Source: Limisphaerales bacterium (GTDB taxonomy: Bacteria; Verrucomicrobiota; Verrucomicrobiia; Limisphaerales; CAIMTB01). From it: a stretch of 64,000 bases of DNA. Location: assembly GCA_050250555.1 (NCBI GenBank), contig JBFWOK010000002.1, positions 8,053-72,052 of the forward strand, given 5' to 3'. Below the pieces are notes generated by a model. That model saw only the letters and a list, made by a program, of their open reading frames with translations, made no database searches and was not told the DNA's origin. Positions 6,497 to 45,251 of the stretch are shown in pieces. Both the position numbers and the translations under genes were made by a program. How positions within the stretch are numbered: position 1 is the first letter of the stretch; each line of letters opens with the position of its first letter.

Positions 6497-6542
6497 TGTT
6501 TCTCGTGAACCGAGAGCCAGCCACCGGGACACGGCAGCGCGG

Positions 6543-7421: not shown

Positions 7422-7688
7422 GGCGGAGGGAACCCGTCCATGAGGCCCGTCACACTGGATCCAGCAATGGTTGTTTTGGGGCACAGGAAGGTTCGAAGCC
7501 CTCCCCGCGCGTTGGGATGAGCGCCGAGAATCGCTTCGTTCCCGATGAAATCGAGATCCAACCATTCGGCATTCCCCGCCTCCGCGCGGAGGATGTGTTC
7601 TCCTCCGATAGATAAAAGCCGGAGGAACCTTGCGGCTCCTCCGGCCAATCAGGCCCGCGAACGACGGATCGCGGTCAGGAATCAGTGT

Positions 7689-8351: not shown

Positions 8352-8755
8352 AGGGGATGGGTGATGAGGGTTTTTGCCGTCTGAAGACTCTTGATGAACG
8401 GAGGTCCGGCTTCCTGCCGGACGGCGGACTCGGCCGAACTCCCGGCCTGGATCAGGACGTGGCCGATCGCGGCGAGCGCCGCATGGGTCTGCTCGAGGAC
8501 CAGGGCGTGATCGGTCTCGGGGCGCACCTCGCCGACAAGCCGGTTCTCGTCCCGGCGCGCGGACCCAGGCCAAAGCAGAGCAATGACCAAAACGAGGGAT
8601 GCCAGTCCGGCCAACGCGCCCCATGCCCACGCGGGTCCGCGCGGTCGTTTCGGGGTTTTGCCCCGGGGGATGGCGCGTGAGACCTGGTCGAGCACCGAGG
8701 GAGGGCAAGTCTCGTTCCGGAGTTCCCGGATCAGTCGTTCGATAGGGTCATCCAT
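8348..8755 (-). CDS. Putative anti-sigma factor (single-pass membrane protein)
   Basis: 135 aa. Overlaps the ECF sigma gene stop by 25 nt. One hydrophobic helix (WAWGALAGLASLVLVIALLW) follows a short cytoplasmic N-terminal region. The call rests mostly on position between the sigma and DUF4252 genes. Confidence 0.65.
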   Translation of the reverse strand: MDDPIERLIRELRNETCPPSVLDQVSRAIPRGKTPKRPRGPAWAWGALAGLASLVLVIALLWPGSARRDENRLVGEVRPETDHALVLEQTHAALAAIGHVLIQAGSSAESAVRQEAGPPFIKSLQTAKTLITHPL

Positions 8756-31680: not shown

Positions 31681-33711
31681 TTAGTCCACCGGCCAAAACC
31701 GCCGTCGTTCCTCGTCCGTCAAACCTCGACCCACCCGCCTCTTGGCCGCGGCGAGAAGCTCGTCGATCGAACCGCACGGCTCGCATAGGTATCCGCTCGC
31801 CGGGGCGAAGAGTCTGCCGACCAAAACCCGCCGCCCGTCTGGGCTGAAAGCCAGCGTTCGAATCTCCCCTTCGCTCCCGGATAGCCCCGCCAATCGGCTT
31901 CCGGTCGCCGTCACCCAAAGTTCCGCCGATGCCGAACCCAAGCTGGCCGTGAGAACGCAGCTTCCATTCGGACTGAATTCGAAGAGTCCCGGCGACTTGT
32001 CGCCTCCTTCAACAGTGATGCGCGCCACTTCACCTCCGTCCGACGCACTCCAGACAACCAGGGTCTGGTCCGCATACCGGGTCACCAGCCACCTGCCGTC
32101 CGGACTGTAGCGTGCTTCCCGCGCGTGCGGACTCCCCGTCGTCCTGACCAGGGTCCGCTCGCACTCGCCCGTGCCCGCCCGCCAGACGCGCGCTCCGGAA
32201 TCACCGTCCGCGGTGACGAGCCGGTTCCCGTCCGGACTGTACTGAACGCTTCGGACCTCGCCGGATGAACCCTTCAACTCGAGCCGGATGTCGCCCGTGC
32301 CCGAGTCGAGGACCACCACTCCGCGGCGCCCGCAGACCGCGACCTGCCCACCCGCGGGATGAAAGGAAACCGCTGGATTCCCGAAGGTCGCCACGGCATC
32401 GGAAAGGGGCACCGTGGCAAGCGTCGCGTTCCGCGCCACATCCCACAGCAGTGCATCCTGACCCGCTGCAAGGCTGACCACACGCGAGTCATCCGGACCC
32501 GGAACCACCGAGGTCGCCCCGGAATGCGAGACACGCCATTCCTCCCGCCCCGTCTCCGCGTTCCATAGCCGGATCGAACCGTCGCCGCCCACCGTCGCGA
32601 TGCGACGCCCATCCCGACTGTGGCGCGCGTCGAGGATGTCTCCGCTGTGACCGGCCAGTTCCAGCTTCGGAGTTCCCGAGACCGCGTCGACAACCCGCGC
32701 CGTCTCACCACCCCAAAGGACAAGCCTCGTCCCGTCCGGGCTGAACCGCGCGTAGCCCTCGCGATCGCGGGGCCCTTTCAGGACCAGGTCGGCCTCGATG
32801 TCGCCGGCCAGGGCCTCGCGAAGCGCGCTCTCGGATTCGGAATTGGAATCGAGTCGCAGCGCCTCGGATGCCAGCAGGATTCGCAACTCGCGATTCGCCG
32901 CCGGCAGATTCATCGAGGCTTGAGCCATCCGACGGGACCCTTCCCTCCTCTTCGCCCCGTCCGCCGCGGCCTCACCTTGCGCCACCAGGTTTCCGGCGAT
33001 CCGCAAAGCCCGTCCCCCCCGCACGGCGGCGACCACGGAAATCACCGCCACCCCCGCCAGGGCGACCCCGGCCCACCCGAAGAGACGAATCCTTCGCCGG
33101 TGCTCCCGGACGTCCTCCCCGATCACCTCGTCCAACGACAGCCCCCGCAGGGTCGCCGCGAGACGCGCCACGGCGTCGGCGAATGCCGGATTCCGCAGGG
33201 TCAGGACCCGCGCGTCGCGAGCCCACCGGAGGTCGAGAAACAAGGGCTCCTGGGCATACGCCCGGGAAAGCACCGTCGGAAGGGCCGTCGTTCGGTTCCA
33301 TTCAAAATCCCGAGCCGCGGCGTCCCAGGCGATTTCGCCATCCGTCAGCACGATGAGCAGGCGATCGGCGGATCGTTGCGTCAGCCACCACGCAACCTCC
33401 TGTTCCACCCATTTCGATGCCGCGGATCCCGGCGACGCGAGCAGGACGAAGAATTTCGAATCGGCCAGCGACGCGACGATCGCCCCCCACAGCGCTGGCG
33501 TCACACCCAGACCGGTCGCATCCCTACAAACCCGCATGCCGCGAAACCGGTGCCACGGCCGCGCGAAACCCTGCAAACCCTTCTGCAAGGCAGGCGCGAG
33601 CCGACCATCGGCCGCGGTGCTGTACGACAGAAATGCCGTGTACCGCGGGGAGGGCTTTCCCCCCTTCCCCAACGCCCCCTCGTCGACCCCTTCGTTCGCC
33701 CTCGTGTTCAC
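31681..33711 (-). CDS. TIR domain - transmembrane helix - WD40 beta-propeller protein
   Basis: GTG start at 33711 overlaps the upstream TGA (GTGA). TIR motifs: YTAFLSYSTAADGRLAPALQKGL, FFVLLASPGSAASKWVEQEVAWW (conserved Glu context) and LLIVLTDGEIAW. TM helix LFGWAGVALAGVAVISVVAAV. At least six WD40-like blades (FSPDGTRL, HSRDGRRIATVGGDGSIRLWN, YSPDGNRLVTADGDSGARVW, YSPDGRWLVT, FSPNGSCV, FSPDGRRV). Confidence 0.85.
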   Translation of the reverse strand: MNTRANEGVDEGALGKGGKPSPRYTAFLSYSTAADGRLAPALQKGLQGFARPWHRFRGMRVCRDATGLGVTPALWGAIVASLADSKFFVLLASPGSAASKWVEQEVAWWLTQRSADRLLIVLTDGEIAWDAAARDFEWNRTTALPTVLSRAYAQEPLFLDLRWARDARVLTLRNPAFADAVARLAATLRGLSLDEVIGEDVREHRRRIRLFGWAGVALAGVAVISVVAAVRGGRALRIAGNLVAQGEAAADGAKRREGSRRMAQASMNLPAANRELRILLASEALRLDSNSESESALREALAGDIEADLVLKGPRDREGYARFSPDGTRLVLWGGETARVVDAVSGTPKLELAGHSGDILDARHSRDGRRIATVGGDGSIRLWNAETGREEWRVSHSGATSVVPGPDDSRVVSLAAGQDALLWDVARNATLATVPLSDAVATFGNPAVSFHPAGGQVAVCGRRGVVVLDSGTGDIRLELKGSSGEVRSVQYSPDGNRLVTADGDSGARVWRAGTGECERTLVRTTGSPHAREARYSPDGRWLVTRYADQTLVVWSASDGGEVARITVEGGDKSPGLFEFSPNGSCVLTASLGSASAELWVTATGSRLAGLSGSEGEIRTLAFSPDGRRVLVGRLFAPASGYLCEPCGSIDELLAAAKRRVGRGLTDEERRRFWPVD

Positions 33712-35195
33712 GGCGCGGACCTCGCCTCGCCCGCCGGTTCGTCCTTCCGGCTTCCCCCGCTTTCCGGGTGATTCGCCCGAGTCTCCGTTCGCAATCGGGC
33801 GCCCGGCAGATCCGATAGATCCAGTCGGTACAGAACCTGGTTGTAATCGTGCCTCGCCGTCGGAAAGGCGTGATCGGCGAACGTCATCGAGAAGGTCCCC
33901 TCGAAGTAGACGGAAGACGAACCTGCCTCCCCGAACTCCGGATGAAGGCGCGGATTGTAGAACGTGTAGTTCTCGTGGCTCAGGATCTTGACCGCGCCCG
34001 ACCACGGTCCCAGGGGCGAATCCGCCTCGGCATACCACACCTCACCGAAAGCCGAAGGCTTGCCGAATGACTCCACGAAGACCGTGATCCAGCGCTTTCG
34101 GAAGGCGTTCCAGGCGATCGAACCGCTGTGCGGCTTGACCCGGCCTTCCCCCACGGCGAATGGAATCGCTTCCTGGGGCTTCAAGGTCTCCCAGTTCACG
34201 GAATCGCTCCACGCTTCGAACGTCGCCCGACAACGCAACGTGGGGAGCGGATTCCCGAAAAGGATCCATTCGATTCCCGCGTCGTCCCGCCAGGACACGG
34301 CATGCCCGTCCGGACATGGCACCGGCTTCGGTGTTCCCTCGGACTTCCTCCACACCTGCCGCCACGGATCGAACCGCCGTGCCTCCTCGTTCCAGACACA
34401 CAACCCCCACTCGTAGGCCTCCAACGGCGGCGTGATCTTCATGTACGAAGCCCCCAGTCGGCTTCCTCCGTTCGTCGAAGGCAAACTCACCAGTCCGGTC
34501 AGCCACGTGGGCCCGCTCCCCGCCATCTTCGCCACACCCCGCGGAACACCAGCGTCACCTTCGAAATAGTCGAATCGAATCTTCAAGGGCGCCTCCAACG
34601 ACCGCCCCACAGGCAACAAGGTCGTCGCCGCGGACGCGTCGAAAATACCCAGCGGATACCCCGCCAGCGTCGTGTCCCCCCAGACCCAGAAGAGCCGCCC
34701 CCCATGCACCGCATTCTGGACACTGTCGCAGCCGAAAACTCCCTGCTCCCCCCATTCCAATTCCTCCCCCAGTTTCTGGCTCTCCGCGAAAATCCCCGCT
34801 CCCGTCAACCGCCCGATCCGCCGCGCCAGCGAACTCCGCTCCACCTCCACTCGGATCCGGCCTCCAGGCTGCGGTCTCAGACGAACACCCCGGTATCCAA
34901 AACCGTCCTTGGGAACCCCATACCCGTGCCCCACCACTCCAAACCACGTCTCGCGCCCCATCAGTTCCGGTGCGTCGAGCGCGATGACCCCGGCATTGTC
35001 GCTGACCCAGCGCGCGTGATGCGTCGTCCGCAGTTCCACCAATGGCACCGGCGCGCCCGATCCCTTTTCGACCACCTCGATCCGGCACGGACGTAACACT
35101 TCGCCGCCAATGCACGTCAAACCCGCCGTGGCGACCCACAACATCCCGCCAACCCACCGACGCAGTCGGATTCCGGAAGTCGGATGGAATTGCAT
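33708..35195 (-). CDS. Hypothetical exported protein (possible DUF4185-like / beta-propeller glycosidase-like fold)
   Basis: Start at ATG 35195 with a signal-like N-terminus (MQFHPTSGIRLRRWVGGMLWVATAGLTCIGG). GRLFWVWGDTTL and VWYAEADSPLGPWSG resemble propeller glycosidase/DUF4185 patterns, but only weakly. The stop overlaps the TIR gene start. Confidence 0.65.
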   Translation of the reverse strand: MQFHPTSGIRLRRWVGGMLWVATAGLTCIGGEVLRPCRIEVVEKGSGAPVPLVELRTTHHARWVSDNAGVIALDAPELMGRETWFGVVGHGYGVPKDGFGYRGVRLRPQPGGRIRVEVERSSLARRIGRLTGAGIFAESQKLGEELEWGEQGVFGCDSVQNAVHGGRLFWVWGDTTLAGYPLGIFDASAATTLLPVGRSLEAPLKIRFDYFEGDAGVPRGVAKMAGSGPTWLTGLVSLPSTNGGSRLGASYMKITPPLEAYEWGLCVWNEEARRFDPWRQVWRKSEGTPKPVPCPDGHAVSWRDDAGIEWILFGNPLPTLRCRATFEAWSDSVNWETLKPQEAIPFAVGEGRVKPHSGSIAWNAFRKRWITVFVESFGKPSAFGEVWYAEADSPLGPWSGAVKILSHENYTFYNPRLHPEFGEAGSSSVYFEGTFSMTFADHAFPTARHDYNQVLYRLDLSDLPGARLRTETRANHPESGGSRKDEPAGEARSAP

Positions 35196-35250
35196 GCCTT
35201 GTTTCTCCTCCTCCCCACCCGAATGGGAAACGGCAAACTTTGATCCCCTC

Positions 35251-35446
35251 GCGGACGGAACAACCACGGAACCAGACCGAGCACACTGAAAGAGAAAATG
35301 GACGACCAGAGACCCGTCCCTCAGTTGGACTCTTCGCCATCAGGCCGCTGGCGGACCAAGCGGCCCCGAGAAACCACCAGGCCCCACAGGCGACCCACGC
35401 CCTTCCCCTTTCCGTGTTTTCCGGGTGTTCCGTGGTTGTCCTCCGC
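35251..35446. repeat. CACGGAG-family long imperfect palindrome (~196 bp)
   Basis: The left arm gcggacggaacaaccacggaaccagaccgagcacac (35251-35286) pairs with the right arm ccgtgttttccgggtgttccgtggttgtcctccgc (35412-35446). The element is intergenic, between divergent genes. Confidence 0.6.
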
Positions 35447-35502: not shown

Positions 35503-37215
35503 ATGCATCCCCGCACCTGGACGATCTGGACATCCCAAACCATCGCCCGCGGTACTCCCGTCCGCGCCCGGATCGGACGTCTCTTCTCGCTTCTTCTCAG
35601 TCTTTCCCTTCACGGCGGGGCCGCCGAACACGACCTGGTCGTCTATGGCGGGACCTCGGCCGGAGTCATCGCCGCGGTGCAGGCGCGGCGCATGGGCAAG
35701 GACGTCGTCCTCGTTTGCCCGGATCGCCATCTCGGCGGCCTCTCCAGCGGCGGCCTCGGATTCACCGACACCGGAAACAAAGCCGTCATCGGTGGACTTG
35801 CCCGCGAGTTCTACCACCGCATCTGGAAGCACTACGACGAACCCGCGGCCTGGAAATGGCAGGCGCGGTCCGAGTACGGGAACAAAGGCCAGGGAACCCC
35901 CGCCATCGACGGCGCCCAGCGCACGATGTGGATCTTCGAACCCCACGTTGCCGAGAAGGTCTTCGAGGACCTGGTCCGCGAGCATCAGATTCCCGTGCAT
36001 CGCGATGAAAGGCTCGACCGCGGGAAGGGCGTCCGAAAATCCGGCGACCGCCTTCGCTCAATCACCATGCTCTCCGGCCGGACCTTCGCGGGACGGATGT
36101 TCATCGACGCCACCTACGAAGGGGACCTCATGGCCGCCGCCGGCGTCGCCTACCACGTCGGGCGTGAATCGACCAACACATACGGCGAAACGTGGAACGG
36201 CGTTCAGACCGGGGTCCTCCATCACCGACATCACTTCGGCGTGCTGAAACAGGGCATCAGCCCCTACGTCGTCCCCGGCGACCCTTCCAGCGGCGTCCTC
36301 CCACGAATCAGCCCGGCGCCTCCGGGCGCGTACGGAGCCGCCGACGATCGGATCCAAGCCTACTGCTACCGGACCTGCCTCACCGATCACGCGCCCAACC
36401 GCGTCCCCTTCCCCAGGCCGGACGGCTATGATCCGACCCAGTACGAACTCCTCCTGCGCGTCTTCGCGGCGGGTTGGCGCGAAACCTTCGACAAGTTCGA
36501 TCCGATCCCCAACCACAAGACCGACACTAACAACCACGGCCCGATCAGCTCCGACAACATCGGAATGAACTACGACTACCCGGAAGCCTCCTACGAACGC
36601 CGCCGCGAGATACTCCGCGAACACGAGACGTATCAGAAGGGCTGGCTTTACTTCGTCGCCAACGACCCCCGCGTTCCGGCCGACGTTCGTGACGCCATGT
36701 CGAAATGGGGCTTGGCCCGCGATGAATTCACCGACAACGGAAACTGGCCGCACCAGATCTACGTCCGCGAGGCGCGCCGGATGATCGGGGAGTTCATCAT
36801 GACCGAGAACGAACTGCTGAAGCGCCATCCGACGCCGGACTCGGTGGGCATGGGCTCCTACACGATCGATTCGCACAATGTGCAGCGCTACATCACGCCG
36901 GACGGATTCGTTCAGAACGAGGGCGACATCGGCGTTCGGACACCCGGCCCCTACCCGATCGCCTACGGCGCCCTGGTCCCGAAGAAGGGCCAGGCCGCGA
37001 ACCTCCTGGTGCCGATCTGCGTTTCCAGTTCCCACATCGCGTTCGGTTCGATCCGCATGGAACCGGTCTTCATGATCCTCGGCCAGTCGGCGGCCACCGC
37101 GGCCGTTTTCGCGCTCGACGCGGGCATCGCCGTCCAGGACGTCCCCTACCCCCGCCTCAAGGAACGCCTGCTGAAGGACGGCCAGATCCTGGAATCCACT
37201 CCCGCGTCTCGCTGA
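35503..37215 (+). CDS. FAD-dependent oxidoreductase (FAD_oxidored/PF12831-like, exported)
   Basis: Start at ATG 35503. Signal-like segment, then the dinucleotide motif DLVVYGGTSAGVIAAVQARRMG. IDATYEGDLMAAAG, and the C-terminal SSSHIAFGSIRMEPVFMILGQSAA typical of this family, which is common next to glycan-active genes. Confidence 0.85.
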   Translation: MHPRTWTIWTSQTIARGTPVRARIGRLFSLLLSLSLHGGAAEHDLVVYGGTSAGVIAAVQARRMGKDVVLVCPDRHLGGLSSGGLGFTDTGNKAVIGGLAREFYHRIWKHYDEPAAWKWQARSEYGNKGQGTPAIDGAQRTMWIFEPHVAEKVFEDLVREHQIPVHRDERLDRGKGVRKSGDRLRSITMLSGRTFAGRMFIDATYEGDLMAAAGVAYHVGRESTNTYGETWNGVQTGVLHHRHHFGVLKQGISPYVVPGDPSSGVLPRISPAPPGAYGAADDRIQAYCYRTCLTDHAPNRVPFPRPDGYDPTQYELLLRVFAAGWRETFDKFDPIPNHKTDTNNHGPISSDNIGMNYDYPEASYERRREILREHETYQKGWLYFVANDPRVPADVRDAMSKWGLARDEFTDNGNWPHQIYVREARRMIGEFIMTENELLKRHPTPDSVGMGSYTIDSHNVQRYITPDGFVQNEGDIGVRTPGPYPIAYGALVPKKGQAANLLVPICVSSSHIAFGSIRMEPVFMILGQSAATAAVFALDAGIAVQDVPYPRLKERLLKDGQILESTPASR

Positions 37216-37251: not shown

Positions 37252-40200
37252 TCAATTCGGCACTCTCGGCGCATCGGGCGTGACATGATCGAGCCGGGCC
37301 ACGAGATCGTCACAACGCCGGGCAAAGGACTCGAAACTGTCGTACTTGAGGACTACATGTCGAATTTCGTCAATCGACTCGTCGCTGATCTCGCCACCCG
37401 CCACAAACTGTTCGAGATGCCCGATGGCCTCGTAGCCACGAAAACCGCCTCCACCATCCCATGTCTGCCGATGCCGGTTCCTGTAGATCCGACTCCAATC
37501 GAGGATCTCCCGTAGCCATTGCTCGAGAACCTCCGCGTGACAATCGAACGCGTACAGATTGCTTCGCCAAAGCCAGTGAAACCCAATGCCCGATTTGGAT
37601 GCCGGCTTACCTTCCGACTCGACGTCGGTTTTGTTTCTGAGGACACTCGTCGCGCCAAGAAAATCCCCCAGCGACAGACGGTGCGGGCCCGCGGACCGAC
37701 GCAAGCGCAGAGCGGTAGGCTGATACCGAAGACTGCTTCCATCGGGGCGAAGGGGGCGCACCGGAAGTCCGACTCCCATGGCCAGGCGCGATTCGTTCGC
37801 CTTCACATCGGTCAGCACGTCGAGAGCCAATTCCCCAAGCCGAACGGACTGGCTTCCTTTGGTGATTCCAAGATACCAGTCGCCACGAACCGAAAAATGC
37901 CCGGGCAAACGCAAAGGCCTGAGGTCCACCGTGGGATTCGCGGAGGAATCCTTGGACTCCCGCGTCGCGGCGCAGGCCGTCTTGTACCAGTGCCGGCACG
38001 CGACAAAGCCCCCCTGGGCTCCCGGGGCGTCCGGTTTCCAAGCGGGCCACAGTTCCGCTCCGTCGAAGTCCATCACCTCGAGCAACAGCAGCCAGGCTTT
38101 GTAGAGCTGCAGGAAATGGCCCGAATTCGGCCCCATCACTTTAACCAAGGCTTCTCGCAGTCTCTTTTCCTCAATCTTATCGACCCCCTTGCCTTCCTGG
38201 CTCTTAATGAGTTCTTTTATTTCCTTGGCCCGAGCCTCGATCGTCGTTTCTTTGGGCTGATCCCGTATAGCCTCATTGAGGGAAAGAACCCCTTTCAACA
38301 GACTCCGAATACTCTCCGGACCTCCCGACCTTGGGGCGGATGAATCGTCTCCGGGACTGGAAATACACTTTGTCAGCTTATCCCCAGGCGCATCGGATCC
38401 CCAACTCGGCGAGCCAAGATACTTAGCGATCTCCGAGATCCAAATCTCCAGCACAAGGCAAAGAAGAGAACTCGGCTCCGCCATAGCCGTGCCAAAAGCG
38501 CGCACGCCACCCCCGGCAGGACTGCACCCGGTACCCGCCAGGCGGTTCGCTTCCGCTTGAGCAACCTCTTTGGCAGCCATCAGAAAGTCCTTCCAGCCCA
38601 CCTTGAAGCCCGTGGCGCCTGCCTCATTGTTCGCAGGATGAATGAGTTGGGAGTCGGAAACTGCGTTGACAACCTCGTTGATCCACGGGAGAGCCTTCGA
38701 TTTCCTACCCTCCTCCCTCCGCTCATCATCTTCCCCGATTGTCCGCGCCGCGCGTCGCCACGCGGCTGCATCAATCATCAGGAATCCATAGTCCCAGGTA
38801 TACGGCACCCGGTCGATTGAAGCTGGCATGCTGTTAGTGGACCCGGGGCTCCACGGCGAGTAGTCCATTTCGCTGCATCGAAAACTGTCGATCCGCTTCC
38901 TGAACGAACCGGTCTTCGAGCCGACCCGTTCCTTTGGAGAATGCACGTGAAACTGGTCTTCGAAGCGCTGCTCCTCGGCCAAGCCGACTCGAAGATCCCG
39001 ATGGAGGTAACTCCTCAGCGATCGCAAGTCCCCATCCTGAGTCCTGTTCCAGTAGCCGTCGACCTGCACCACCAGGGTCATGGGCTTGTTCACGGGATTC
39101 GGATAAGCCGCCAGATCCCGAAGGATCCCGTACTCCCCTGTACCCCGGGATCGGATGATTCCCCCCTCGCCGCCATCCCCGGGCGAATGAGCGCTGATGA
39201 AGAACGTCCGCAGAAAGGCGTCTTCCTTGTCGTGGTACTCCTGTATCCCTGCGGTTTCCGTGTGCAACTGCACCTCAAGCGGTATCCTCTGCGGTCGCTG
39301 GGCATGGAGGTGGGAGTACAGTTCGAAATCCGGATCCGCAAGCGCGCGCTCCGCACCCTCGTCGTGAACGACCCGCAGCTCCCGTACACAGCCATGGAGA
39401 TCGCCCACCAGCGCCGGTTCGACGGTGAACGCCACGCGCTCAGCCCCCTCGAACGGCACCCGCCACACCTTGATCACCGTGAAGCGCTCCGGCTTGCCCG
39501 CCGGAGTGCTGGAGGCGCTGGGACGAACCGACACCTTGGGAACGGACTCCACGATCACACTCGTGACGCCCCTACGCCGAAGGTAGGTGGTCAGGAGCGA
39601 ACAGACGGCCGTGTAGGAATCCTGATCGCTGTCACAGGCCATCTGCAACGCCTCCATGTCGTCAATCACCAAGCGGAGCGGAGGACGCCCCCGCCCCTGG
39701 GTGGCATCACCATTTAGCCAGGGATTCGAGGACTGATCATCGTTGCAGGCCACCTCGACGTGCCGGCGGACAACATCGAAAAAAACTCCCGGAATGAGGT
39801 CACGCGGAACCAAGCGCCGATAAAGGATGAGATCCAGGCGCTTCCGATCCTTCGCCTCCGATTCCTCGGTCACGATAAGCGGTACGAGAGCCCGAATGAA
39901 TGCGTCCCTAAAGGCCTTGGGCTGGACGCCTTTGTAAACCTGGATTTGATCGTAGAGTATCCGAGTCAATGGGTGTTCGGCGTACCGCGTGAAGAGCGCG
40001 TTGGCGATCTCGTTTCGAAACCTGCGAAGGTCCAGGTATCGGGTGGTGATAAGGATTGTAGAGAAGGGTTTTAGAATCTCGCGAGCCAAGAGCAGCGTGC
40101 TTAGGAGAAGTTCTTTAAGTTGCTCTTCGCTTACACTCTGCCCCATCTGCGATAGGCGTTTTATTTGCTCCTCGACCTGAGTCTTCTGGTTTTTTAGATC

Positions 40201-41763
40201 ACTCTTCTCGGCTTCCTTCTTGACCCATTCGCAGAGTTTACTGGCGCTCTCCGGGAGTTTCCATTTTGGAGGAGTCCCGCTCAGGTTCGACAGCACCGCC
40301 AGGGAGGTACGGACCAGCGCCGCGATCGAATGCTGGACAAAGGCCGTCGCCAAAAGGCTCTTGTGGGTGTTGGCTTCGCCAGTCACTTTGGCCAACGAGC
40401 CACTTCTGAGGCCGCATACGTCGCTGGCGGGGTGAGGCTCGACTTTGACCTCGGAGTTGGAAGGCAGCTCCGCGGGATCCCGAAGCATGTTGTCGAGGAA
40501 TTTAATGCCGAAGGCGGCGTATCGAGGTCGGTCGCACTCCTCTTCAGTTTTCGACTTCAGGGCCGCCTGCGCCTCGCCTTCGTGGCCGCTTCCCGAACCC
40601 GTCGGGGCCTCGGGCCTGGATCGCTTCAACGCGTAGAGCAGCCATTGGATCGAAGGGAAAACACGGACAATGCTATTCCCTTCCCGGGGATTGTCCGCCT
40701 CATGTTGCCTGTCACTGTAGCCCGCCTCCCTTCCATGGGAGAAAAACTCAAGGGTGTGCTCGTCCAGCGAGTTCTCAAATCCACGCGCTTTGATCACGCG
40801 GATGGTCCGAAGGTTCACGCCATTCCGACTCGTGTACCGCAGGCGGTAGACAAAATCAGCCTGGGCCTCCTCCCGGCGTGCGTTGTTTGGGATCTCCTCC
40901 CCCGATGACGTAAAGACGAGGTTGGCTTTGTCCTTGAGCAGGTGGATCAGTCGGTTGATGCGCGCTTCGGTGGGAATAGCCTCACCGTAGAGATCCCGCC
41001 CCCCGCTTGCGGTCTCCAGTCCCGGCACTGAGTCAATGACGACCAGATGCGGACAGTTGGGTGGGGCGCTCGGGAGAAACGACGCGATCCGCTCAATGAG
41101 AGTCCACTCGTCGCCAAGGTCGAAGGTGGACAGGTCGACGAATGAAATCTCGCCGTCAGTCGTTCTGGATCCCCCAGAGGACCCGGAATCGAAGCTGGCG
41201 GTCCAGACTCTCGCCGCGAGCAGATCGCCTATCAGCTCTCCGACGGGTTCTTGGGGGCCGGGCTCCTCCTTGTCCACACTTTTTTTGCCTTCACCGATCG
41301 TGTACGCCTTGAGAATGGTTCTGCCAACGCTGGCGTTTTCTCGAAGGCGAGAGAACCAAGTGCGGACATCGTCCGCGTGGGACTCCCATCCGTACGTCCG
41401 GCCCACGACATCGTTGAGCTTGAACGTTCTCATCAGCGCGGCAGCTTCTCTGAAGCGCCAGTCCGTGGAGAAGAAAAGGATGATCGGCGAACGTGAAGTC
41501 AACTCGACCGACTTCAATCGATTGCAGAGGGTGGCCCGGTAGTGGGCTGCCAGATGTAGCGCCAAGGTGGATTTGCCCGACCCAACCGGCCCCTCAATGC
41601 AGATCACACTTGGCCTGGAATCCGGATTATCGGTTTTGCCCTTCTCTTCCTGCGGACCCGTCCTTTCAAGGAGCAATCCGTCCAAATCCGGAATGCCAAA
41701 CCACAATCGCACGCGGCGACCTTTGTCGACTTCGCGGTCCGTGTTCGCCCCCGTGGTGGTCAT
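37252..41763 (-). CDS. 1503-aa protein: KaiC/RecA-like ATPase domain + second degenerate KaiC-like domain + ~650-aa C-terminal solute-binding-protein-like (PBP2-like) region; function unknown
   Basis: ATG at 41763 overlaps the upstream stop (ATGA). Domain 1: Walker A ICIEGPVGSGKSTLALHLA, Walker B HLVVIDSVPGLE, KaiC-like IRVIKARGFENSLDEHTLEF. Domain 2: FGIKFLDNML...GSLAKVTGEANTHKSLLATAF (Gly to His in Walker A), PLRLVIDDMEAL, and FTVIKVWRVPFEG. C-terminal region: VPYTWDYGFLMIDAAAW, VGWKDFLMAAKEV, and LPGHFSVRGDWYLGITKGSQSVRLGELALDVLTDVKANESRLAMGVGLPVR, resembling MalE-type binding proteins. Markedly lower GC than the flanks. Confidence 0.85.
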   Translation of the reverse strand: MTTTGANTDREVDKGRRVRLWFGIPDLDGLLLERTGPQEEKGKTDNPDSRPSVICIEGPVGSGKSTLALHLAAHYRATLCNRLKSVELTSRSPIILFFSTDWRFREAAALMRTFKLNDVVGRTYGWESHADDVRTWFSRLRENASVGRTILKAYTIGEGKKSVDKEEPGPQEPVGELIGDLLAARVWTASFDSGSSGGSRTTDGEISFVDLSTFDLGDEWTLIERIASFLPSAPPNCPHLVVIDSVPGLETASGGRDLYGEAIPTEARINRLIHLLKDKANLVFTSSGEEIPNNARREEAQADFVYRLRYTSRNGVNLRTIRVIKARGFENSLDEHTLEFFSHGREAGYSDRQHEADNPREGNSIVRVFPSIQWLLYALKRSRPEAPTGSGSGHEGEAQAALKSKTEEECDRPRYAAFGIKFLDNMLRDPAELPSNSEVKVEPHPASDVCGLRSGSLAKVTGEANTHKSLLATAFVQHSIAALVRTSLAVLSNLSGTPPKWKLPESASKLCEWVKKEAEKSDLKNQKTQVEEQIKRLSQMGQSVSEEQLKELLLSTLLLAREILKPFSTILITTRYLDLRRFRNEIANALFTRYAEHPLTRILYDQIQVYKGVQPKAFRDAFIRALVPLIVTEESEAKDRKRLDLILYRRLVPRDLIPGVFFDVVRRHVEVACNDDQSSNPWLNGDATQGRGRPPLRLVIDDMEALQMACDSDQDSYTAVCSLLTTYLRRRGVTSVIVESVPKVSVRPSASSTPAGKPERFTVIKVWRVPFEGAERVAFTVEPALVGDLHGCVRELRVVHDEGAERALADPDFELYSHLHAQRPQRIPLEVQLHTETAGIQEYHDKEDAFLRTFFISAHSPGDGGEGGIIRSRGTGEYGILRDLAAYPNPVNKPMTLVVQVDGYWNRTQDGDLRSLRSYLHRDLRVGLAEEQRFEDQFHVHSPKERVGSKTGSFRKRIDSFRCSEMDYSPWSPGSTNSMPASIDRVPYTWDYGFLMIDAAAWRRAARTIGEDDERREEGRKSKALPWINEVVNAVSDSQLIHPANNEAGATGFKVGWKDFLMAAKEVAQAEANRLAGTGCSPAGGGVRAFGTAMAEPSSLLCLVLEIWISEIAKYLGSPSWGSDAPGDKLTKCISSPGDDSSAPRSGGPESIRSLLKGVLSLNEAIRDQPKETTIEARAKEIKELIKSQEGKGVDKIEEKRLREALVKVMGPNSGHFLQLYKAWLLLLEVMDFDGAELWPAWKPDAPGAQGGFVACRHWYKTACAATRESKDSSANPTVDLRPLRLPGHFSVRGDWYLGITKGSQSVRLGELALDVLTDVKANESRLAMGVGLPVRPLRPDGSSLRYQPTALRLRRSAGPHRLSLGDFLGATSVLRNKTDVESEGKPASKSGIGFHWLWRSNLYAFDCHAEVLEQWLREILDWSRIYRNRHRQTWDGGGGFRGYEAIGHLEQFVAGGEISDESIDEIRHVVLKYDSFESFARRCDDLVARLDHVTPDAPRVPN

Positions 41764-43082
41764 GCGGCGATAATTTCCTCCTTCAAGATCTCCCCAAGGA
41801 CTTTCCTATAGGCGCTTCTCTGGGCGCTCCTTTGGCGCACCAGGTTCGCCAGCCCCTCATCTAGAGCCATTCGTCTCTCCGCAAGGTTCTTCTCATCCGC
41901 ACGCCATTTCGCTTTCATGCATCGATTCAAAATGTTGGCAAAGGCCTTCCGATAGTCGTCCACAACTTTGGTCTCGTTTGATGAGGGACCTGATGGAGGA
42001 ATCAATGCTCCGGCAGAAGCGTCATCGACGTAAGCGCGGACCACCTTGTTGAATCGCTCAACCAATACATTGTGAAGCGTCGACCAAGCCCCCGGTTTCT
42101 CCGGGCTTAGAATATCTTCCGCTACATAGTCGTCGCGGAGATCCAAATAGAGATCTCGGAGCCGAGTCGCCTTTGCAATAACGCCACCGGAACGATCCTC
42201 ATCGGAGCCCAGTCGGGGAAGGAGACTCGATAGGCCCATCGTCGCGATCTGTTTGACGGAAGTCGGTGTGGACCACCATAGGGACGGGAGATAAACCGAC
42301 TTCAATTCCGCGGAATGCGCCTGTCGCTGGTGCAGGATGCCGACGAGCACCTGGGCGACCTGCGCCCTCTGGCCCGGGGTGTGGGCCTCCAAGTTGTCGA
42401 ACAGCTGCCCGAAGACATCCGCGATCGATCCCGCATGGGCGGTCGCCATGATCGTGTGTCCGGTCCGGGCAAACTCGTAGGCCAGGCGCCAGGCGAACTT
42501 CTCGCGAAGTTCCCCGACATAAACGAGCGTCGTGGTCTGCCGAAGCGCCGTCTTGAGACACCGCTCCAATCGCTTCTCCCGGGTCTCCTTATCTCCGTAC
42601 AAGAGGCGAGTGCAAACGTGCGCCATCAGTTCGCTTTCCTTGTCCTCCTCCTTTTCCTTCCGAACAAGATAGGGGCCAACGCTGTCACGCCCCATCGATA
42701 TCCCGCCCGACACCTTGGCGCCGGGGTTGGCCGCGGTTGTGAGGCCAAGTTTCATCAGGGAAAGCCCCTCTTTCTCCTTCGCATCGACCGACACCACCTC
42801 CGAAAGCAATTCGTCTGGATCCTCGAGGGTCAGGATCATCGGCGGTTCTGGTGTTTCAGGTGTTTCTCCTTCCTTCTTCCCCTTCTCCTCAGCCTCCACG
42901 AGGCGATGATGCCTCGGCAGAAGAATCGCGCTGTGAACGATCTGCGCCGCCAATGTCGTCTTTCCCGATTTCGTTCTTCCACCAATGACAATCAGGCCTT
43001 TGGCAAGACCTCGGCTCAAAAGGTTTTCCCGCTCTGGGTACTGGCTGAACAGGTGATGTTCTTTTGGATCTGGCGCACTCAT
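41760..43082 (-). CDS. Divergent PilT/VirB11/GspE-superfamily (secretion-type) hexameric ATPase-like protein with helical C-terminal extension
   Basis: 440 aa. Walker A LIVIGGRTKSGKTTLAAQI, Asp-box-like MILTLEDPDELL, Walker B/Glu YVGELRE, and His-box-like TGHTIMATAHAGSIADVF, in the canonical order. A ~110-aa charged insertion sits between the Asp box and Walker B. The ~170-aa helical tail was not recognised. Confidence 0.8.
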   Translation of the reverse strand: MSAPDPKEHHLFSQYPERENLLSRGLAKGLIVIGGRTKSGKTTLAAQIVHSAILLPRHHRLVEAEEKGKKEGETPETPEPPMILTLEDPDELLSEVVSVDAKEKEGLSLMKLGLTTAANPGAKVSGGISMGRDSVGPYLVRKEKEEDKESELMAHVCTRLLYGDKETREKRLERCLKTALRQTTTLVYVGELREKFAWRLAYEFARTGHTIMATAHAGSIADVFGQLFDNLEAHTPGQRAQVAQVLVGILHQRQAHSAELKSVYLPSLWWSTPTSVKQIATMGLSSLLPRLGSDEDRSGGVIAKATRLRDLYLDLRDDYVAEDILSPEKPGAWSTLHNVLVERFNKVVRAYVDDASAGALIPPSGPSSNETKVVDDYRKAFANILNRCMKAKWRADEKNLAERRMALDEGLANLVRQRSAQRSAYRKVLGEILKEEIIAA

Positions 43083-43146
43083 TGGAGGGAGGTGGTTTCG
43101 GAATCCGGCGGCTCGACTCCGGACGGAACGGCAGCGTTGTTACCGC

Positions 43147-43758
43147 TCAAAGTCGACCTCGCGCCGCTGGGTTCTCTGGTATCGCGACTTCGTCCTGGAA
43201 TCGGACAGTGAGGTAGAAGATCGGACCTGATTTGCTTTCAGACATTCCAGCATCCGTTGCTTCGCCCGCCCCTCCGGAATTGGTTCCGTTTCCGGGGGTC
43301 TTGATGCTACCGATGCAGTCCACCAAGGTGATCCTCGCCGACCTGAAGCGTTTCCTTTTTTTGTCGGGCGTTCCTTTTGGCGCGCGCAACTCCAACCCCT
43401 CGGGATGCACGCTCAAAAAATCGAGCTTCGATTCCGCATCGCACGGGTCACCATTTTGCGGCAAGTGATCGAAAAGTTGACAGGCCTGCGCGTAGCTTAG
43501 TGGCGCGTGGAATTCCTTCTCCGGGGTCCAGCCGATGGACTCCAATTCGTTCAGGATCGTATCGTAAAGAATCTGACGGAAGTATTTGGCGGCATTCCCT
43601 TTCAGAATCGGAGGTTGGTCGGAACTCGAAGGCATGGTCCAAGTTTGGTGCTCGAGTCGTTCGCGCAAATAACCAGCAGGCCGGGAATGACGGTCCGGAA
43701 AATCCTGAGTCATCCGCGATCCGTCAAGAATCAAACTCGGTGTTTTCACTATTTTCAT
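43147..43758 (-). CDS. Hypothetical protein (first gene of the low-GC triad)
   Basis: Preferred start is ATG 43758 (MKIVKTPSLILDG...), because GGAGAGG lies 5 nt upstream; an alternative ATG is at 43773. 203 aa, with no TM helix or signal peptide, a Lys/Arg patch (KGTPDKKRKRFRSAR) and a Gly/Ser-rich linker. No domain recognised. Confidence 0.65.
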   Translation of the reverse strand: MKIVKTPSLILDGSRMTQDFPDRHSRPAGYLRERLEHQTWTMPSSSDQPPILKGNAAKYFRQILYDTILNELESIGWTPEKEFHAPLSYAQACQLFDHLPQNGDPCDAESKLDFLSVHPEGLELRAPKGTPDKKRKRFRSARITLVDCIGSIKTPGNGTNSGGAGEATDAGMSESKSGPIFYLTVRFQDEVAIPENPAARGRL

Positions 43759-43819: not shown

Positions 43820-44042
43820 CCCCGAAACGGGATCTCACGGAGTCACGGAGGCACGGCGTTTCGGGCGGGGATTCCGGGATTCGCGAGCCTCGGGTTGGGG
43901 AATGAACGGTTTGGATCTTGGGCCGGACCGCACCTGCCGGCGTCATGCGGATCGTCGAGCCGAATTGTTTTCGCCGGGATCGTTCCCTGGATGCCAATTT
44001 CCGCTCTCCGATTCTCCGCGCCTCCGCGCCTCCGTGAGAGAT
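43820..44042. repeat. CACGGAG-family palindromic element (~220 bp) between the island and the esterase gene
   Basis: The left unit is cccgaaacg-ggatctcacggagtcacggaggcacgg-cgtttcggg (43821-43865): a 9-bp stem closing a loop of CACGGAG repeats. The right arm ctctccgattctccgcgcctccgcgcctccgtgagagat (44004-44042) is complementary to the left repeats, and it ends in cctccgtgagaga as in the 2.8-3.07 kb copies. Confidence 0.65.
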
Positions 44043-44084: not shown

Positions 44085-45251
44085 ATGAAACCCTCGCTGC
44101 TTTTCGCCCTGGCCCTTTGCGCCTTGGGCGCCTCCCGCGTGTTGGCCCAGACTCCCGCCGCCCCCGCGACCTCAGCGTCCGCCGCTCCTACCACCAACGC
44201 CGCGCCGCGCCGCGGACAGGGTCCGCCGCCTGTTCGATCGGCGGTTGTCGACGACGATCGCCGGGTCACGTTCCGCCTCCGCGCCCCGAAGGCGACCGAG
44301 ATCGCCGTCAACGGCCAGTGGCCCGACGGCCGAGCCCCAATGACCAAGGACACCAACGGCGTCTGGAGCGTCACCGTGGGCCCCGTGCCATCCGGTGTCT
44401 GGGAGTACGGGTTCCAGGTGGACGGCGTCGGCATGATCGACCCCGGCAATCCGGCGATCAAACCCATGCGCGAACCGCGCACGAGCATTCTGCACATTCC
44501 CGGCGAGCCGCCGCTCATCCACGACTTTCGCGACGTCCCCCACGGGGTGGTCCGACAGCACACGTACCGGTCGTCCTCGCTGAACCGGCTTCGCGAACTC
44601 GCGGTCTACACTCCCCCCGGCTACGACCAGAATCCCTCCGCCCAGTTCCCGCTGCTCGTTCTTCAGCACGGTTCCGGCGACAATCAGGCAACCTGGGTCG
44701 CCCACGGCAAGGCGCACTGGATCCTCGACAATCTCTTCGCCCAGGGACGCGCGGTTCCCATGGTGGTCGTCATGCTCGACGGGCACGCGGCGGTCGCGTC
44801 CGGGGGAGGCGGTCCGCAGAACAACACCGCGCTCTTCGAACGAGATCTGCTCGAGGACGCCCTCCCGCTCGTCGAATCCGCCTATCGCCTCAAGCCCGGG
44901 GCCGTGAATCGCGCCATCGTCGGACTCAGCATGGGCGGGGGTCAGTCCCTCACGATCGGACTGAAACACACCGACCGTTTCGCCTGGGTCGGCGGCTTCA
45001 GCGCGTCGGTGCCGTCCGCGGAATCCGTCGGTGCCGCGCTCGGCGATCCCGCGACGACCAACGGGCGGTTGCGGCTGCTTTGGATCGCCTGCGGCAAGGA
45101 CGATTTCCTGCTTCGCCGGAACGAGGATTTCATCGCCACGCTGAAAGAACGGACCGTCCGCCATGAATGGCGTTTGACGGAGGGCAATCACAGCTGGCCG
45201 GTCTGGCGGACCTACCTCGCTGAGTTCACGCCGCTCCTCTTTCAGCCCTGA
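44085..45251 (+). CDS. Exported esterase (putative esterase/PF00756-like, CE1-like) with N-terminal Ig/CBM48-like domain
   Basis: Start at ATG 44085 with a signal peptide (MKPSLLFALALCALGASRVLAQ). E-set-like VTFRLRAPKATEIAVNGQW...GVWSVTVGPVPSGVWEYGFQVDG, then YTPPGYD, LVLQHGSGDN, and the nucleophile elbow GLSMGGGQS. Confidence 0.85.
   Translation: MKPSLLFALALCALGASRVLAQTPAAPATSASAAPTTNAAPRRGQGPPPVRSAVVDDDRRVTFRLRAPKATEIAVNGQWPDGRAPMTKDTNGVWSVTVGPVPSGVWEYGFQVDGVGMIDPGNPAIKPMREPRTSILHIPGEPPLIHDFRDVPHGVVRQHTYRSSSLNRLRELAVYTPPGYDQNPSAQFPLLVLQHGSGDNQATWVAHGKAHWILDNLFAQGRAVPMVVVMLDGHAAVASGGGGPQNNTALFERDLLEDALPLVESAYRLKPGAVNRAIVGLSMGGGQSLTIGLKHTDRFAWVGGFSASVPSAESVGAALGDPATTNGRLRLLWIACGKDDFLLRRNEDFIATLKERTVRHEWRLTEGNHSWPVWRTYLAEFTPLLFQP

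Follow-up and report, generated by a model that had tools for sequence, protein, structure and literature searches.

The Locus and Its Base Composition

In the stretch of 64,000 nucleotides analysed here (the window), taken from a genome of the Limisphaerales (Verrucomicrobiota), three co-directional genes lie on the minus strand and form what we call the island (Table 1). The ORF calls and translations reproduced the arrangement given in a preliminary description of this DNA, which had also reported an ATGA overlap between genes 2 and 3 (41760-41763) and a gap of 64 nt between genes 1 and 2, both of which are present in the sequence. Gene 1 codes for an orphan protein of 203 residues (208 if the alternative start is used), gene 2 for a PilT-like ATPase of the T2SSE family (440 residues), the stop codon of which overlaps the gene 3 start, and gene 3 for a giant ATPase of 1503 residues, made up of a tandem KaiC-like region followed by a C-terminal domain resembling solute-binding proteins. 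No transmembrane segment was detected in any of the three products. The motif GGAGAGG does precede gene 1, but this is not the only gene of the island with an obvious Shine-Dalgarno sequence, as had been stated, since AAGGAGG is found 13 nt upstream of the gene 3 ATG.

Table 1. Features of the island and of its surroundings (positions in the window; aa, residues of the product).
Feature	Position	Strand	Evidence or remark
Gene 1	43147-43758 (or 43773)	minus	ORF call
Gene 2	41760-43082	minus	ORF call
Gene 2, ATPase core (aa ~28-270)	42273-43001	minus	Motif conservation, 62 family members
Gene 2, charged insert in the core (aa ~55-165)	42588-42920		
Gene 2, C-terminal tail (aa ~271-440)	41763-42272	minus	Alignment; longer than in most relatives
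Gene 3	37252-41763	minus	ORF call
Gene 3, domain 1, KaiC-like RecA-type ATPase (aa ~15-345)	40729-41721	minus	PF06745, KaiC structures, motifs
Gene 3, domain 2, duplicated KaiC-like (aa ~410-822)	39298-40536	minus	hhalign, motif variants
Gene 3, C-terminal region, MalE-type fold (aa ~823-1503, about 690 aa)	37255-39297	minus	AF2 and Foldseek
CACGGAG repeat, inverted arms	43833-43864 and 44008-44039		Right edge of the island
CACGGAG repeat, other copy	2835-3046		
Different inverted repeat, not CACGGAG	35251-35446		

The deviant composition that had been claimed from six hand-counted samples of 100 nt, whose values (53, 44, 54, 53, 66, and 71%) were matched exactly on recount, emerged from the sliding GC and GC3 analyses. 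The GC content is 58.4% in the island and 65.5% in the rest of the window, the island being 7 points below its own flanks, with a standard deviation of 1.9% among the 1-kb windows lying outside the island; moreover, when a window of the size of the island was slid along the whole stretch, its lowest-GC position coincided exactly with the island. The GC3 values are 0.60-0.70 within it and 0.77-0.85 in the flanking genes. As had been observed, no integrase, transposase, or tRNA gene adjoins the island. The CACGGAG repeat noticed at its right edge is real (12 matches in the window; expectation, 1.08), but the place assigned to its second copy is occupied by a different inverted repeat, and the other copy lies elsewhere (Table 1). 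The TIR gene said to be located 3.5 kb away is not supported, the TIR match in the neighbouring WD40 gene being below threshold (21.6 bits versus the 28 of Pfam). According to the explanation that we tentatively favour, the island would be a horizontally acquired, self-contained NTPase module of this Limisphaerales genome.

The Secretion-Type ATPase and the Orphan Protein

The assignment of the gene 2 product to the PilT/VirB11-type ATPases is supported by PF00437 (8.6e-10), by pilT_fam (6e-16), and by PilT structures (1.6e-9). Its best matches are the PilT/PilU retraction ATPases, and it is closer to PilT than to FlaI (6e-16 and 1.4e-7, respectively). The match spans only positions ~135-280 of the 370 of the pilT_fam profile, and the score of 58.6 bits is far below the cut-off of 319.1. 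The core harbors a Walker A (GRTKSGKT), an Asp box (LEDPDE), a Walker B (VGELRE), and a His box (TGH..TAHAGS), and conservation of the corresponding motifs (Walker A, EDP[IV]E, VGExR, and TGH..T.HAGS) extends across 62 members of the gene 2 family. The N-terminal part is different: only 34 residues precede the Walker A of the window protein, versus 100-347 in 61 relatives, so that the usual N-domain of about 150 residues is missing from the motor in the window lineage alone. No sequence similarity between this N-domain and that of PilT was found, nor did the profile of the family N-domain retrieve any relative from the PDB.

The identity of these best matches is in favor of an alternative that we regard as unlikely, namely that the module serves a type IV filament or a secretion machine encoded elsewhere, as an accessory regulator or an auxiliary motor. 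The PilT-like ATPase would dock on a pilus or secretion platform of the host, and the KaiC-like/solute-binding protein would tune the motor to an intracellular carbohydrate or metabolite, for instance, in surface behaviour or in exopolysaccharide-linked motility. All the members of the secretion ATPase family known to us act on membrane platforms, and pilT and pilU genes commonly lie away from pilus clusters; both facts agree with such a role, as does the resemblance of the sensor domain described below to sugar-binding proteins. The low pilT_fam score and an N-domain unrelated in sequence speak against it.

Concerning gene 1, its order of GC content by codon position (GC3>GC1>GC2) is typical of a coding sequence. 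Its product has no match in Pfam, NCBIfam, PADLOC, PHROGs, or the PDB, and no homologue was found in about 85 related loci. The preliminary description had raised the question of whether the three genes are conserved as a unit; with no counterpart of gene 1, and no other third gene conserved, the triad fails as such. Gene 1 is probably co-transcribed with genes 2 and 3, and, again within the explanation that we cautiously prefer, it would be a lineage-specific accessory. Possibly it stands in for the N-domain missing from gene 2; no similarity was detected between the gene 1 profile and that of the N-domain of the gene 2 family.

The Tandem KaiC-like Region of Gene 3

The first domain of the gene 3 product was recognized as KaiC-like, in agreement with the original call, by PF06745 (4e-8; 33.3 bits, above the threshold of 26.6) and, with family profiles, by KaiC structures (from 1e-10 to 3e-14); the score against the NCBIfam KaiC equivalog (21.4 bits) is far below the cut-off of 408. 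It contains a Walker A (G58-S65), an STD motif with the invariant D101, a Walker B (D244), E250, and the sequence K325-A-R327-G. Since the Walker A is canonical in 129 of 134 family members, and judging from the motifs as a whole, domain 1 is probably an active ATPase.

The "double KaiC" that had been proposed is also confirmed, the profile-profile comparison of domains 1 and 2 with hhalign giving a probability of 96% and an E-value of 3.8e-9. In domain 2, the P-loop is degenerate (G462xxxT466xK468, that is, GxxxTxK) and its region aligns weakly to the P-loop of KaiC CI; the catalytic position has no acidic residue (TT573-574), the Walker B reads V699xDD702, and a variable coiled insert is present. 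Domain 2 is probably regulatory. The four-part architecture of the protein is uniform in 130 of the 156 sequences of the gene 3 family, the remainder being fragments.

The combination of one active and one degenerate KaiC-like domain in tandem recalls the signalling hubs of the KaiC family, and archaeal KaiC-family ATPases were reportedly proposed as signal-transduction hubs by Makarova et al. in 2017. This is one of the points in favor of a second alternative, in our opinion distinctly unlikely, according to which the module works as a switch or timer in metabolic or stress signalling, with a role neither in conflict nor in filaments. The giant protein would be an autokinase/ATPase hub that uses its solute-binding-like domain to read a cytoplasmic metabolite, and the PilT-like protein its remodelling partner.

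A Solute-Binding-Protein Fold at the C-Terminus

The preliminary description had found no recognisable further domain in these proteins. This is not the case, because gene 3 ends in a sensor-type domain of about 690 residues with a MalE-like fold. The AF2 model of this region, built on an alignment of 69 sequences, has a pLDDT of 77.3 and a pTM of 0.87, and the Foldseek search against the PDB retrieved 92 matches at E<=1e-3. The top 50 are all sugar-binding proteins of ABC transporters (E from 2e-7, probability 1.00), among them MalE3, CbpB, TMBP, and SmoF, with TM-scores on the target of 0.46-0.64 for the top matches. The sequence identity with solute-binding proteins is only 8-12%, and the similarity lies in the fold alone: neither the sequence-profile search nor the Pfam families of solute-binding proteins gave a match for this domain. 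According to these data, the region has the fold of type II periplasmic-binding proteins, interrupted by large insertions and followed at the C-terminus by a helical tail. Gene 3 has no signal peptide, hydrophobic leader, or lipobox; since the domain is internal to a fusion protein devoid of such a leader, the sequence places it in the cytoplasm.

Over 61 to 101 family members, the invariant residues of this domain are W905, D936, P987, D991, W1057, E1106, S1110, G1288, S1304, S1306, D1315, N1323, R1326, G1330, G1332, L1333, P1334, R1336, and R1400. That so many W, D, E, and R residues are invariant points to a single conserved candidate ligand, and on this ground we suggest that the domain binds one small molecule, the same throughout the family. 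The predicted conserved pocket would suit an endogenous metabolite, which favors the signalling switch. Furthermore, sensors of phage proteins do not usually have so strongly conserved a pocket, which counts against a role in conflict.

Conservation and Genomic Context of the Gene Pair

The gene 3 family comprises 448 clusters at 50% identity and occurs in hundreds of soil and peat bacterial lineages of the Acidobacteriota and Verrucomicrobiota. In 68 of the 70 loci retaining the start of gene 3, its immediate upstream neighbour, in the same orientation, is a gene 2-like gene, and in both exceptions gene 3 is fragmented. Overlaps of 4 nt between the two genes recur (L004, L005, and L008). The co-occurrence that the preliminary description had proposed to check thus concerns two genes: genes 2 and 3 are kept together across both phyla, in flanks whose GC content ranges from 44 to 75%, and the conserved unit is this dyad. 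The matches to PF00437 and pilT_fam, the homology between the two KaiC-like domains, and the ATGA overlap bear out the description of a giant ATPase with tandem KaiC-like domains, whose translation is coupled to that of a secretion-type ATPase.

This conservation makes it very improbable that three unrelated or decaying genes have come together by chance in a low-GC patch, without forming a functional unit. The orphan gene 1 without any homologue and the atypical gene 2 of the window (lacking the N-domain, with a long insert and an extended tail) would fit such a view, but the adjacency of genes 2 and 3 in very different genomes, their intact frames, the invariant catalytic motifs, and the translational coupling are against it.

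In 35 loci, the pair has a GC content on average 3.7 points lower than that of its flanks; the deficit exceeds 3 points in 17 of these loci, and in none is there an excess of more than 3 points. The similarity among gene 3 sequences is not correlated with the GC content of the hosts (rho -0.03), and disrupted copies were found (L007, L046, L063, and L082). No conserved neighbourhood surrounds the pair across the loci compared, where the 190 neighbouring ORFs are mostly housekeeping genes. The lower GC content in half of the loci, the unrelated neighbourhoods, and the occasional Hma, BREX, and integrase genes described below fit a mobile accessory module, possibly involved in conflict. A housekeeping role of the kind implied by a metabolic switch would leave the lower GC content, the sporadic distribution, and the decayed copies unexplained. 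Likewise, low GC content relative to the flanks, unrelated neighbourhoods, and a spread across phyla can hardly be reconciled with the fit to a host-specific platform that an auxiliary filament motor would have.

The pair does not form part of pilus, archaellum, or Kai loci, a possibility that had been raised as a check. Only one pilin-like gene is present among the 4,403 ORFs of about 85 loci, and platform, secretin, and pilin families are missing from the 25 commonest Pfam families of each set of neighbouring ORFs (190 in all), which argues against a filament-associated function. On the other hand, the loci of one subclade (L045, L049, L050, L054, and L073) carry the gene for a DUF4388/PATAN protein immediately upstream of that for the motor. 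Binding of PATAN regulators to PilB, a pilus motor, has been described (10.1101/2021.06.11.447907), so this subclade points to the filament-associated function and away from conflict. As for the signalling switch, genes for ECF sigma factors recur among the neighbours and would be in its favor, but such genes are simply abundant in these phyla. The kaiA and kaiB genes are absent from the island and from the 25 commonest Pfam families of either neighbour set, and the recurrent neighbour families include no conserved output partner, such as a response regulator, which weakens this possibility.

Named Systems and Defence Genes

That the island matches no named system, as had been claimed, agrees with all the collections searched: the pair corresponds to no named system in Pfam, NCBIfam, PADLOC 2.0, or PHROGs, and no description of it was found in the literature searched. 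The only PADLOC-DB 2.0.0 match was mad8, weak and generic (3.6e-5 for gene 3 and 7e-5 for gene 2, about 21 bits), the mad models being generic HMMs built from HHpred/PDB alignments; no other mad (MADS) gene is present in the island.

For the idea that the island may be a defence system, the genomic context is mixed. HmaB and HmaC are encoded directly upstream of the pair in one locus (L004, E=0), and the neighbours in other loci include BrxA/BrxB, AbiLi, nSTAND1, GT4-conflict, and CHAT genes, as well as integrases and Prim-Pol. Such loci are a minority, though. In the three island proteins, no effector domain of any kind (nuclease, protease, TIR, Sir2, pore-forming, or other) was detected, the neighbourhood of the island in the window gave no PADLOC match, and the gene 3 family is represented neither in 2.9 million viral contigs nor among 50,697 phage records or 72,556 plasmids. 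Since most of the 190 neighbouring ORFs are housekeeping genes, any enrichment in defence genes, as judged from the raw counts, is modest. Defence remains a candidate role.

Proposed Mechanism and Significance

The explanation that we favour, with somewhat less than even confidence, is a mobile module of a conflict or defence type, in which a ligand gates a complex of two ATPase rings similar to that of ArlH and ArlI. The KaiC-like protein ArlH is described as interacting with the archaellum motor ATPase ArlI, an interaction inhibited by ArlH autophosphorylation (10.1101/2021.03.19.436134). The analyses establish the order of the genes, the identity of the domains, the C-terminal fold, the conservation of the pair, the deviant composition, and the lack of any named match; by analogy, we propose the following for the oligomeric state, the ligand binding, the coupling of the two ATPases, and the biological role of the module. 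The tandem RecA-like domains of the giant protein would assemble into a KaiC-like double ring, with the solute-binding-like domains forming a peripheral sensor layer for one family-wide small ligand, carbohydrate-like or another metabolite. In domain 1, the state of ATPase activity or of autophosphorylation would depend on occupancy by the ligand, and this state might gate a stacked hexamer of the PilT-like motor, as ArlH controls ArlI; the mechanical output of the motor would then be exerted on a target encoded outside the module.

A more specific version, possible but doubtful, is that of an unrecognised mobile conflict class in which a glycan or small molecule appearing on infection or invasion is sensed by the MalE-like domain, which switches the KaiC-like double ring and thereby releases the PilT-like hexameric motor as effector. 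The motor could, for instance, deplete ATP or work on nucleic acids or on a protein assembly. If so, defence would operate here without a nuclease, protease, or NADase, and ArlH/ArlI would have its first functional analogue in bacteria outside motility.

If the favoured explanation is correct, the partnership between a KaiC-like and a secretion-type ATPase, so far recorded only in the archaeal motility motor, occurs in bacteria as well, as a free-standing, horizontally mobile module rebuilt around a solute-binding-protein fold as an intracellular sensor. As about 450 clusters have neither a family of their own in Pfam, NCBIfam, or PADLOC nor a literature, any function assigned to them would annotate a sizeable block of unknown genes. 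In addition, the pair is a test case for PilT-like motors without a membrane platform and for the tandem KaiC scaffold outside clocks.

Comparison with Known Systems

ArlH/ArlI (FlaH/FlaI) is, to our knowledge, the only established pairing of a KaiC-like ATPase with one of the secretion family. As in the island, the gene for a KaiC-like RecA-type ATP-binding protein adjoins that for an ATPase of the type II/IV secretion family, in the archaellum a hexamer with which ArlH works. ArlH, however, is a single domain of about 230 residues, whereas the gene 3 proteins have 1,200-1,900 residues, with two KaiC-like domains and a solute-binding fold; the island lacks the ArlJ platform, ArlCDE/X, and archaellins, and the hosts are bacteria (Verrucomicrobiota and Acidobacteriota) rather than archaea.

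Gene 3 shares with KaiC the tandem duplicated RecA-like domains and the FGIPxLD...P-loop and KxRG motifs, and KaiC provides its best matches in the sequence and structure databases. KaiC is canonical in both domains, whereas the second P-loop of gene 3 is degenerate and the catalytic acid is missing there; the catalytic EE of KaiC is replaced by STD in domain 1, the solute-binding-like domain is an addition, and kaiA and kaiB are not among the commonest neighbour families. With PilT/PilU, gene 2 shares the C-terminal ATPase core and its four boxes; it differs in a score far below the family cut-off, in an N-domain unlike that of PilT (lacking altogether in the window protein), and in the absence of pilus genes nearby.

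The C-terminal domain of gene 3 has the two-lobe type II fold of the MalE-type solute-binding proteins (SBP_bac_1 class), but it is fused to a cytoplasmic ATPase, lacks a signal peptide and a lipobox, and is not accompanied by ABC transporter partner genes in the island. Finally, the module resembles STAND-type systems such as Avs (AVAST), with their MalT-like logic, in combining a large NTPase with a C-terminal sensor and in being patchy, low in GC, and sometimes located beside defence systems. It differs from them in that its NTPase is KaiC/RecA-like, no effector domain is present, and the partner is a secretion-type motor.

Genes, composition and edges of the island

The island, i.e., the low-GC segment at 37252-43758 of the window, carries three co-directional minus-strand genes, which encode an orphan protein (gene 1), a PilT-like ATPase (gene 2, the motor gene) and a giant KaiC-like ATPase of 1503 residues (gene 3). 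The preliminary description had placed them correctly, and both the ATGA overlap of genes 2 and 3 and the 64-nt gap between genes 1 and 2 are present. Each of its six hand-counted GC values was reproduced exactly; the deviation is clear at the scale of the island, but milder than those 100-nt samples had suggested (58.4% versus 65.5% in the remaining window, with a standard deviation of 1.9% among 1-kb windows outside the island). A sliding window of the size of the island reaches its minimum GC exactly there, and the GC content at third codon positions is 0.60-0.70 in the island versus 0.77-0.85 in the neighbour genes. Neither an integrase nor a tRNA was found adjoining the island in the window neighbourhood; thus, insertion by way of either is unsupported.

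The palindromic CACGGAG repeat reported at the right edge is real, but its second copy lies at 2835-3046 and not at 35251-35446. Runs of the octamer CACGGAG(N) match 12 times in the window, 1.08 matches being expected from shuffling, and they look like a genome-specific REP/MITE-like element. They do not bracket the island and were rejected as its boundary repeats, since the right-edge copy pairs with itself over the spacer between gene 1 and the esterase gene, at a distance of 35 kb from the second one. Gene 1 is not the sole gene with a Shine-Dalgarno-like sequence, as had been proposed, because AAGGAGG also precedes the start of gene 3; the start of gene 2 is preceded by CCTCCCTCC. Similarly, the TIR gene described 3.5 kb away corresponds to a WD40-repeat gene whose TIR_2 match exists but remains below threshold. 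This gene overlaps the upstream 478-aa gene by 4 nt, and neither of them has a match in PADLOC.

Elsewhere in the window, a 798-aa ORF (51229-53625, minus strand) has a weak match to Shedu SduA/DUF4263 (5.3e-4, residues 510-599), and ARAGORN calls a tRNA-Ile(GAT) at 8071-8154 (plus strand), which is doubtful, since an Rfam scan of the whole window at the gathering threshold retrieved zero RNA families. In GCA_050246335.1, a Limisphaerales MAG assembly of the same organism, the giant gene is split over two contigs, so that a break of this assembly falls inside the island.

Features of the island, of its flanks and of related loci (L numbers denote other loci with relatives of gene 3; unprefixed positions refer to the window)
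Feature	Location	Strand	Remark
Gene 1	43147-43758 (alternative start 43773)	-	ORF
Gene 2	41760-43082	-	ORF
Gene 3	37252-41763	-	ORF
AAGGAGG, within gene 2	41770-41776	-	13 nt 5' of gene 3 start codon
FAD oxidoreductase gene	35503-37215	+	convergent with gene 3, 36 nt apart
Esterase gene	44085-45251	+	divergent from gene 1
Rrf2 and Big_5 genes			farther out than esterase gene, same flank
WD40-repeat gene	31681-33711	-	TIR_2 match 21.6 bits, under Pfam cut-off of 28
478-aa gene	33708-35144	-	weak DUF4185 match only
CACGGAG(N) inverted pairs	43833-43864 / 44008-44039, and 2835-3046		two intergenic regions
Different inverted repeat (GGAACAACCACGGAAC / GTTCCGTGGTTGTCC)	35242-35446		divergent spacer of 478-aa and FAD oxidoreductase genes
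DUF4388/PATAN gene	L045 197-934; L049 5608-6351; L050 2-706; L054 5372-6106; L073 2-676; also L083 3915-4640		140-250 nt upstream of PilT-like gene
Giant gene, split into several ORFs or rearranged	L007 9881-14449; L046 2-2576; L063 591-4360; L082 7797-10657
Motor gene, split into several ORFs or rearranged	L058 6499-7986; L080 235-2075
Giant-gene pieces in GCA_050246335.1	L011 (JBFWWF010000346.1); L091 (JBFWWF010000022.1)

Domain structure of the gene products

The gene 3 protein consists of three parts, namely a KaiC-like N-terminus, a diverged duplicate of it and a C-terminal solute-binding fold. Domain 1 is KaiC-like according to both sequence and profile matches and has a canonical Walker A and, in the place of the KaiC catalytic glutamates, an invariant Asp (D101); D244 of Walker B is also there, as is a KxRG motif. 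In the profile-profile comparison, domain 2 (residues ~410-822) matches domain 1 with 96% probability and an E-value of 3.8e-9, and on this sequence comparison it is a diverged duplicate of domain 1. Its P-loop reads GxxxTxK and its catalytic acid is missing, which suggests that it is probably a regulatory pseudo-ATPase; the protein is thus predicted to combine one active KaiC-like domain with a degenerate one.

The preliminary description had recognised no other domain in this protein; this has to be revised. The last ~690 residues gave no match in sequence searches, including sequence-profile searches of the PDB, and motifs such as RGDWYLGI.KGSRS..LGE.A.D.L suggest a solute-binding protein. 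An AF2 model from a 7-sequence alignment was unusable (pLDDT 41.6), and one based on 69 family members reached a pLDDT of 77.3 and a pTM of 0.87. Foldseek retrieved 92 matches to the latter in the PDB at E<=1e-3, the best 50 of which are all MalE-type ABC-transporter sugar-binding proteins (probability 1.00), with a TM-score on the target of up to 0.64. The fold, in which a large number of W, D, E and R residues are invariant, was detected by fold search only and never by a sequence profile. Its invariant positions include W905, D936, D991, W1057, E1106, S1110, S1304, S1306, D1315, N1323, R1326, R1336 and R1400. Since the products of genes 1, 2 and 3 have neither a transmembrane segment nor a hydrophobic leader, this solute-binding fold is cytoplasmic and fused to the ATPase.

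Gene 2 does encode a secretion-type ATPase, as had been proposed; it belongs to the type II/IV secretion family and is nearest to PilT/PilU, with a match limited to the C-terminal ATPase core and every catalytic box intact. The window copy is atypical, with 34 residues ahead of Walker A versus 100-347 in 61 relatives. The other motor genes share a conserved N-domain (DFTFY...GR..A..CF.G...S.T.R), for which the PDB profile search yielded no relative.

Gene 1 matches nothing in Pfam, NCBIfam, PADLOC, PHROGs or PDB and has no homologue in the other collected loci. Gene 1 may stand in for the N-domain missing from the window gene 2, an idea prompted by that absence. Its derivation as a split-off motor N-domain found no support in sequence comparisons, neither phmmer and hmmsearch nor either of two hhalign runs yielding a positive result (E 0.1-5, probability <1%).

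Family size and conservation of the gene pair

The word-indexed homology search retrieved seven relatives of gene 3, the same seven being obtained with a 61-sequence alignment as query, and with gene 2 as query it recovered only gene 2 itself. The near-singleton family that this suggested for gene 3 was overturned by an exhaustive HMMER search, which yielded 448 clusters (50% identity) at a limit of E<=1e-3, of which 201 reach E<=1e-30. The architecture is uniform, all four segments being present in 130 out of 156 retrieved proteins and the others being fragments. Nine loci were obtained through protein look-ups and a genome scan, and 78 more from metagenome contigs. The GTDB genome scan, whose query consisted of peptides of the window protein only, recovered one locus and missed the window's own genome; a scan of viral contigs gave zero loci.

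A gene-2-like gene lies directly 5' of gene 3 on the same strand in 68 of the 70 loci where the start of gene 3 and 400 nt or more ahead of it are present, and in both exceptions gene 3 is fragmented. No third conserved gene was found beside the pair in the collected loci. This, together with the adjacency and the lack of any match for gene 1, implies that the conserved unit is a dyad of genes 2 and 3 and not the triad originally claimed. Hence, the pair that is kept consists of ATPases from two different classes whose translation is coupled. Its named hosts are Pyrinomonadaceae, another Acidobacteria MAG and, for the window, a Limisphaerales MAG (Verrucomicrobiota). In some loci one of the two genes is rearranged or broken up into several ORFs, reflecting either decay or errors in the sequencing of the metagenome contigs.

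A DUF4388/PATAN protein of about 245 residues (1.3e-16), restricted to one subclade and five or six loci, makes up the largest neighbour family. PATAN domains are known to bind PilB, the motor of type IV pili (10.1101/2021.06.11.447907). This neighbour, as well as the affinity of gene 2 to PilT, supports the idea that the pair regulates type IV filament or secretion machines or serves them as an auxiliary motor, which we consider rather unlikely. Pilin, platform, Kai and archaellum genes are not associated with the pair; a pilin motif occurs in one of 4,403 ORFs of the loci, and the recurrent neighbour families listed include none of these gene classes.

Neighbourhoods and possible role

The neighbourhoods of the pair are unrelated between loci, and housekeeping genes form the majority of its neighbours. 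The flanks range from 44 to 75% GC, and across 35 loci the GC of the pair averages 3.7 points under its flanks, being more than 3 points below them in 17 loci and more than 3 points above them in none; gene 3 similarity is uncorrelated with host GC. In one locus (L004, 1525-7558) the pair lies just 3' of HmaB and HmaC, which belong to the Hma defence system (PADLOC, E=0), with a 215-aa gene in between, and the same arrangement is found in L053. Among the matches listed, BrxA/BrxB, AbiLi, nSTAND1, GT4-conflict and CHAT genes, as well as integrases and Prim-Pol, also occur near the pair in some loci.

The locus L006, home to P0001, which is among the closer relatives of the window gene 3 protein, has two genes downstream of the pair (6463-8429), of which one is ClpB-like and of the AAA type (PDC-M37B/DolB-like, 1.4e-17) and the other, a P-loop gene, matches the generic mad8 model (6.3e-8). 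Membership of the module in MADS was rejected because the matches are weak; those to mad3 and mad8 are uninformative, since the mad HMMs derive from HHpred/PDB alignments of a generic kind. No relative is present in the phage and plasmid collections, and an origin from phages or plasmids is unsupported by the viral, phage or plasmid collections.

The lower GC, the lack of synteny, the spread across phyla, the decayed copies and the occasional defence neighbours lead us to favour, tentatively, a mobile conflict or defence module. The defence or conflict reading of the preliminary description is plausible but unproven. The window's own neighbour genes have zero PADLOC matches. That the pair represents a new kind of conflict system is more doubtful.

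If the hexamers of KaiC and PilT and the ArlH/ArlI pair (10.1101/2021.03.19.436134) are taken as models, the gene 3 protein would assemble as a double ring whose sensor domains would bind one ligand shared by the whole family; domain 1, through its nucleotide state or by autophosphorylation, would then gate a stacked PilT-like hexamer, and this motor would work on a target encoded elsewhere. A metabolite-sensing signalling hub of the KaiC type seems to us improbable.

Comparison with known systems

The preliminary description had matched the island to no named system, and this agrees with our data: no curated model describes the pair or the KaiC-KaiC-SBP fusion, and no description of either was found in the literature searched. 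Tested for membership, the module falls outside the archaellum motor, the Kai clock, PilT/PilU, the solute-binding proteins of transporters and every PADLOC system, although it shares individual features with all of them. Judging from the sequences, it would represent a variant not previously described, assembled from known parts.
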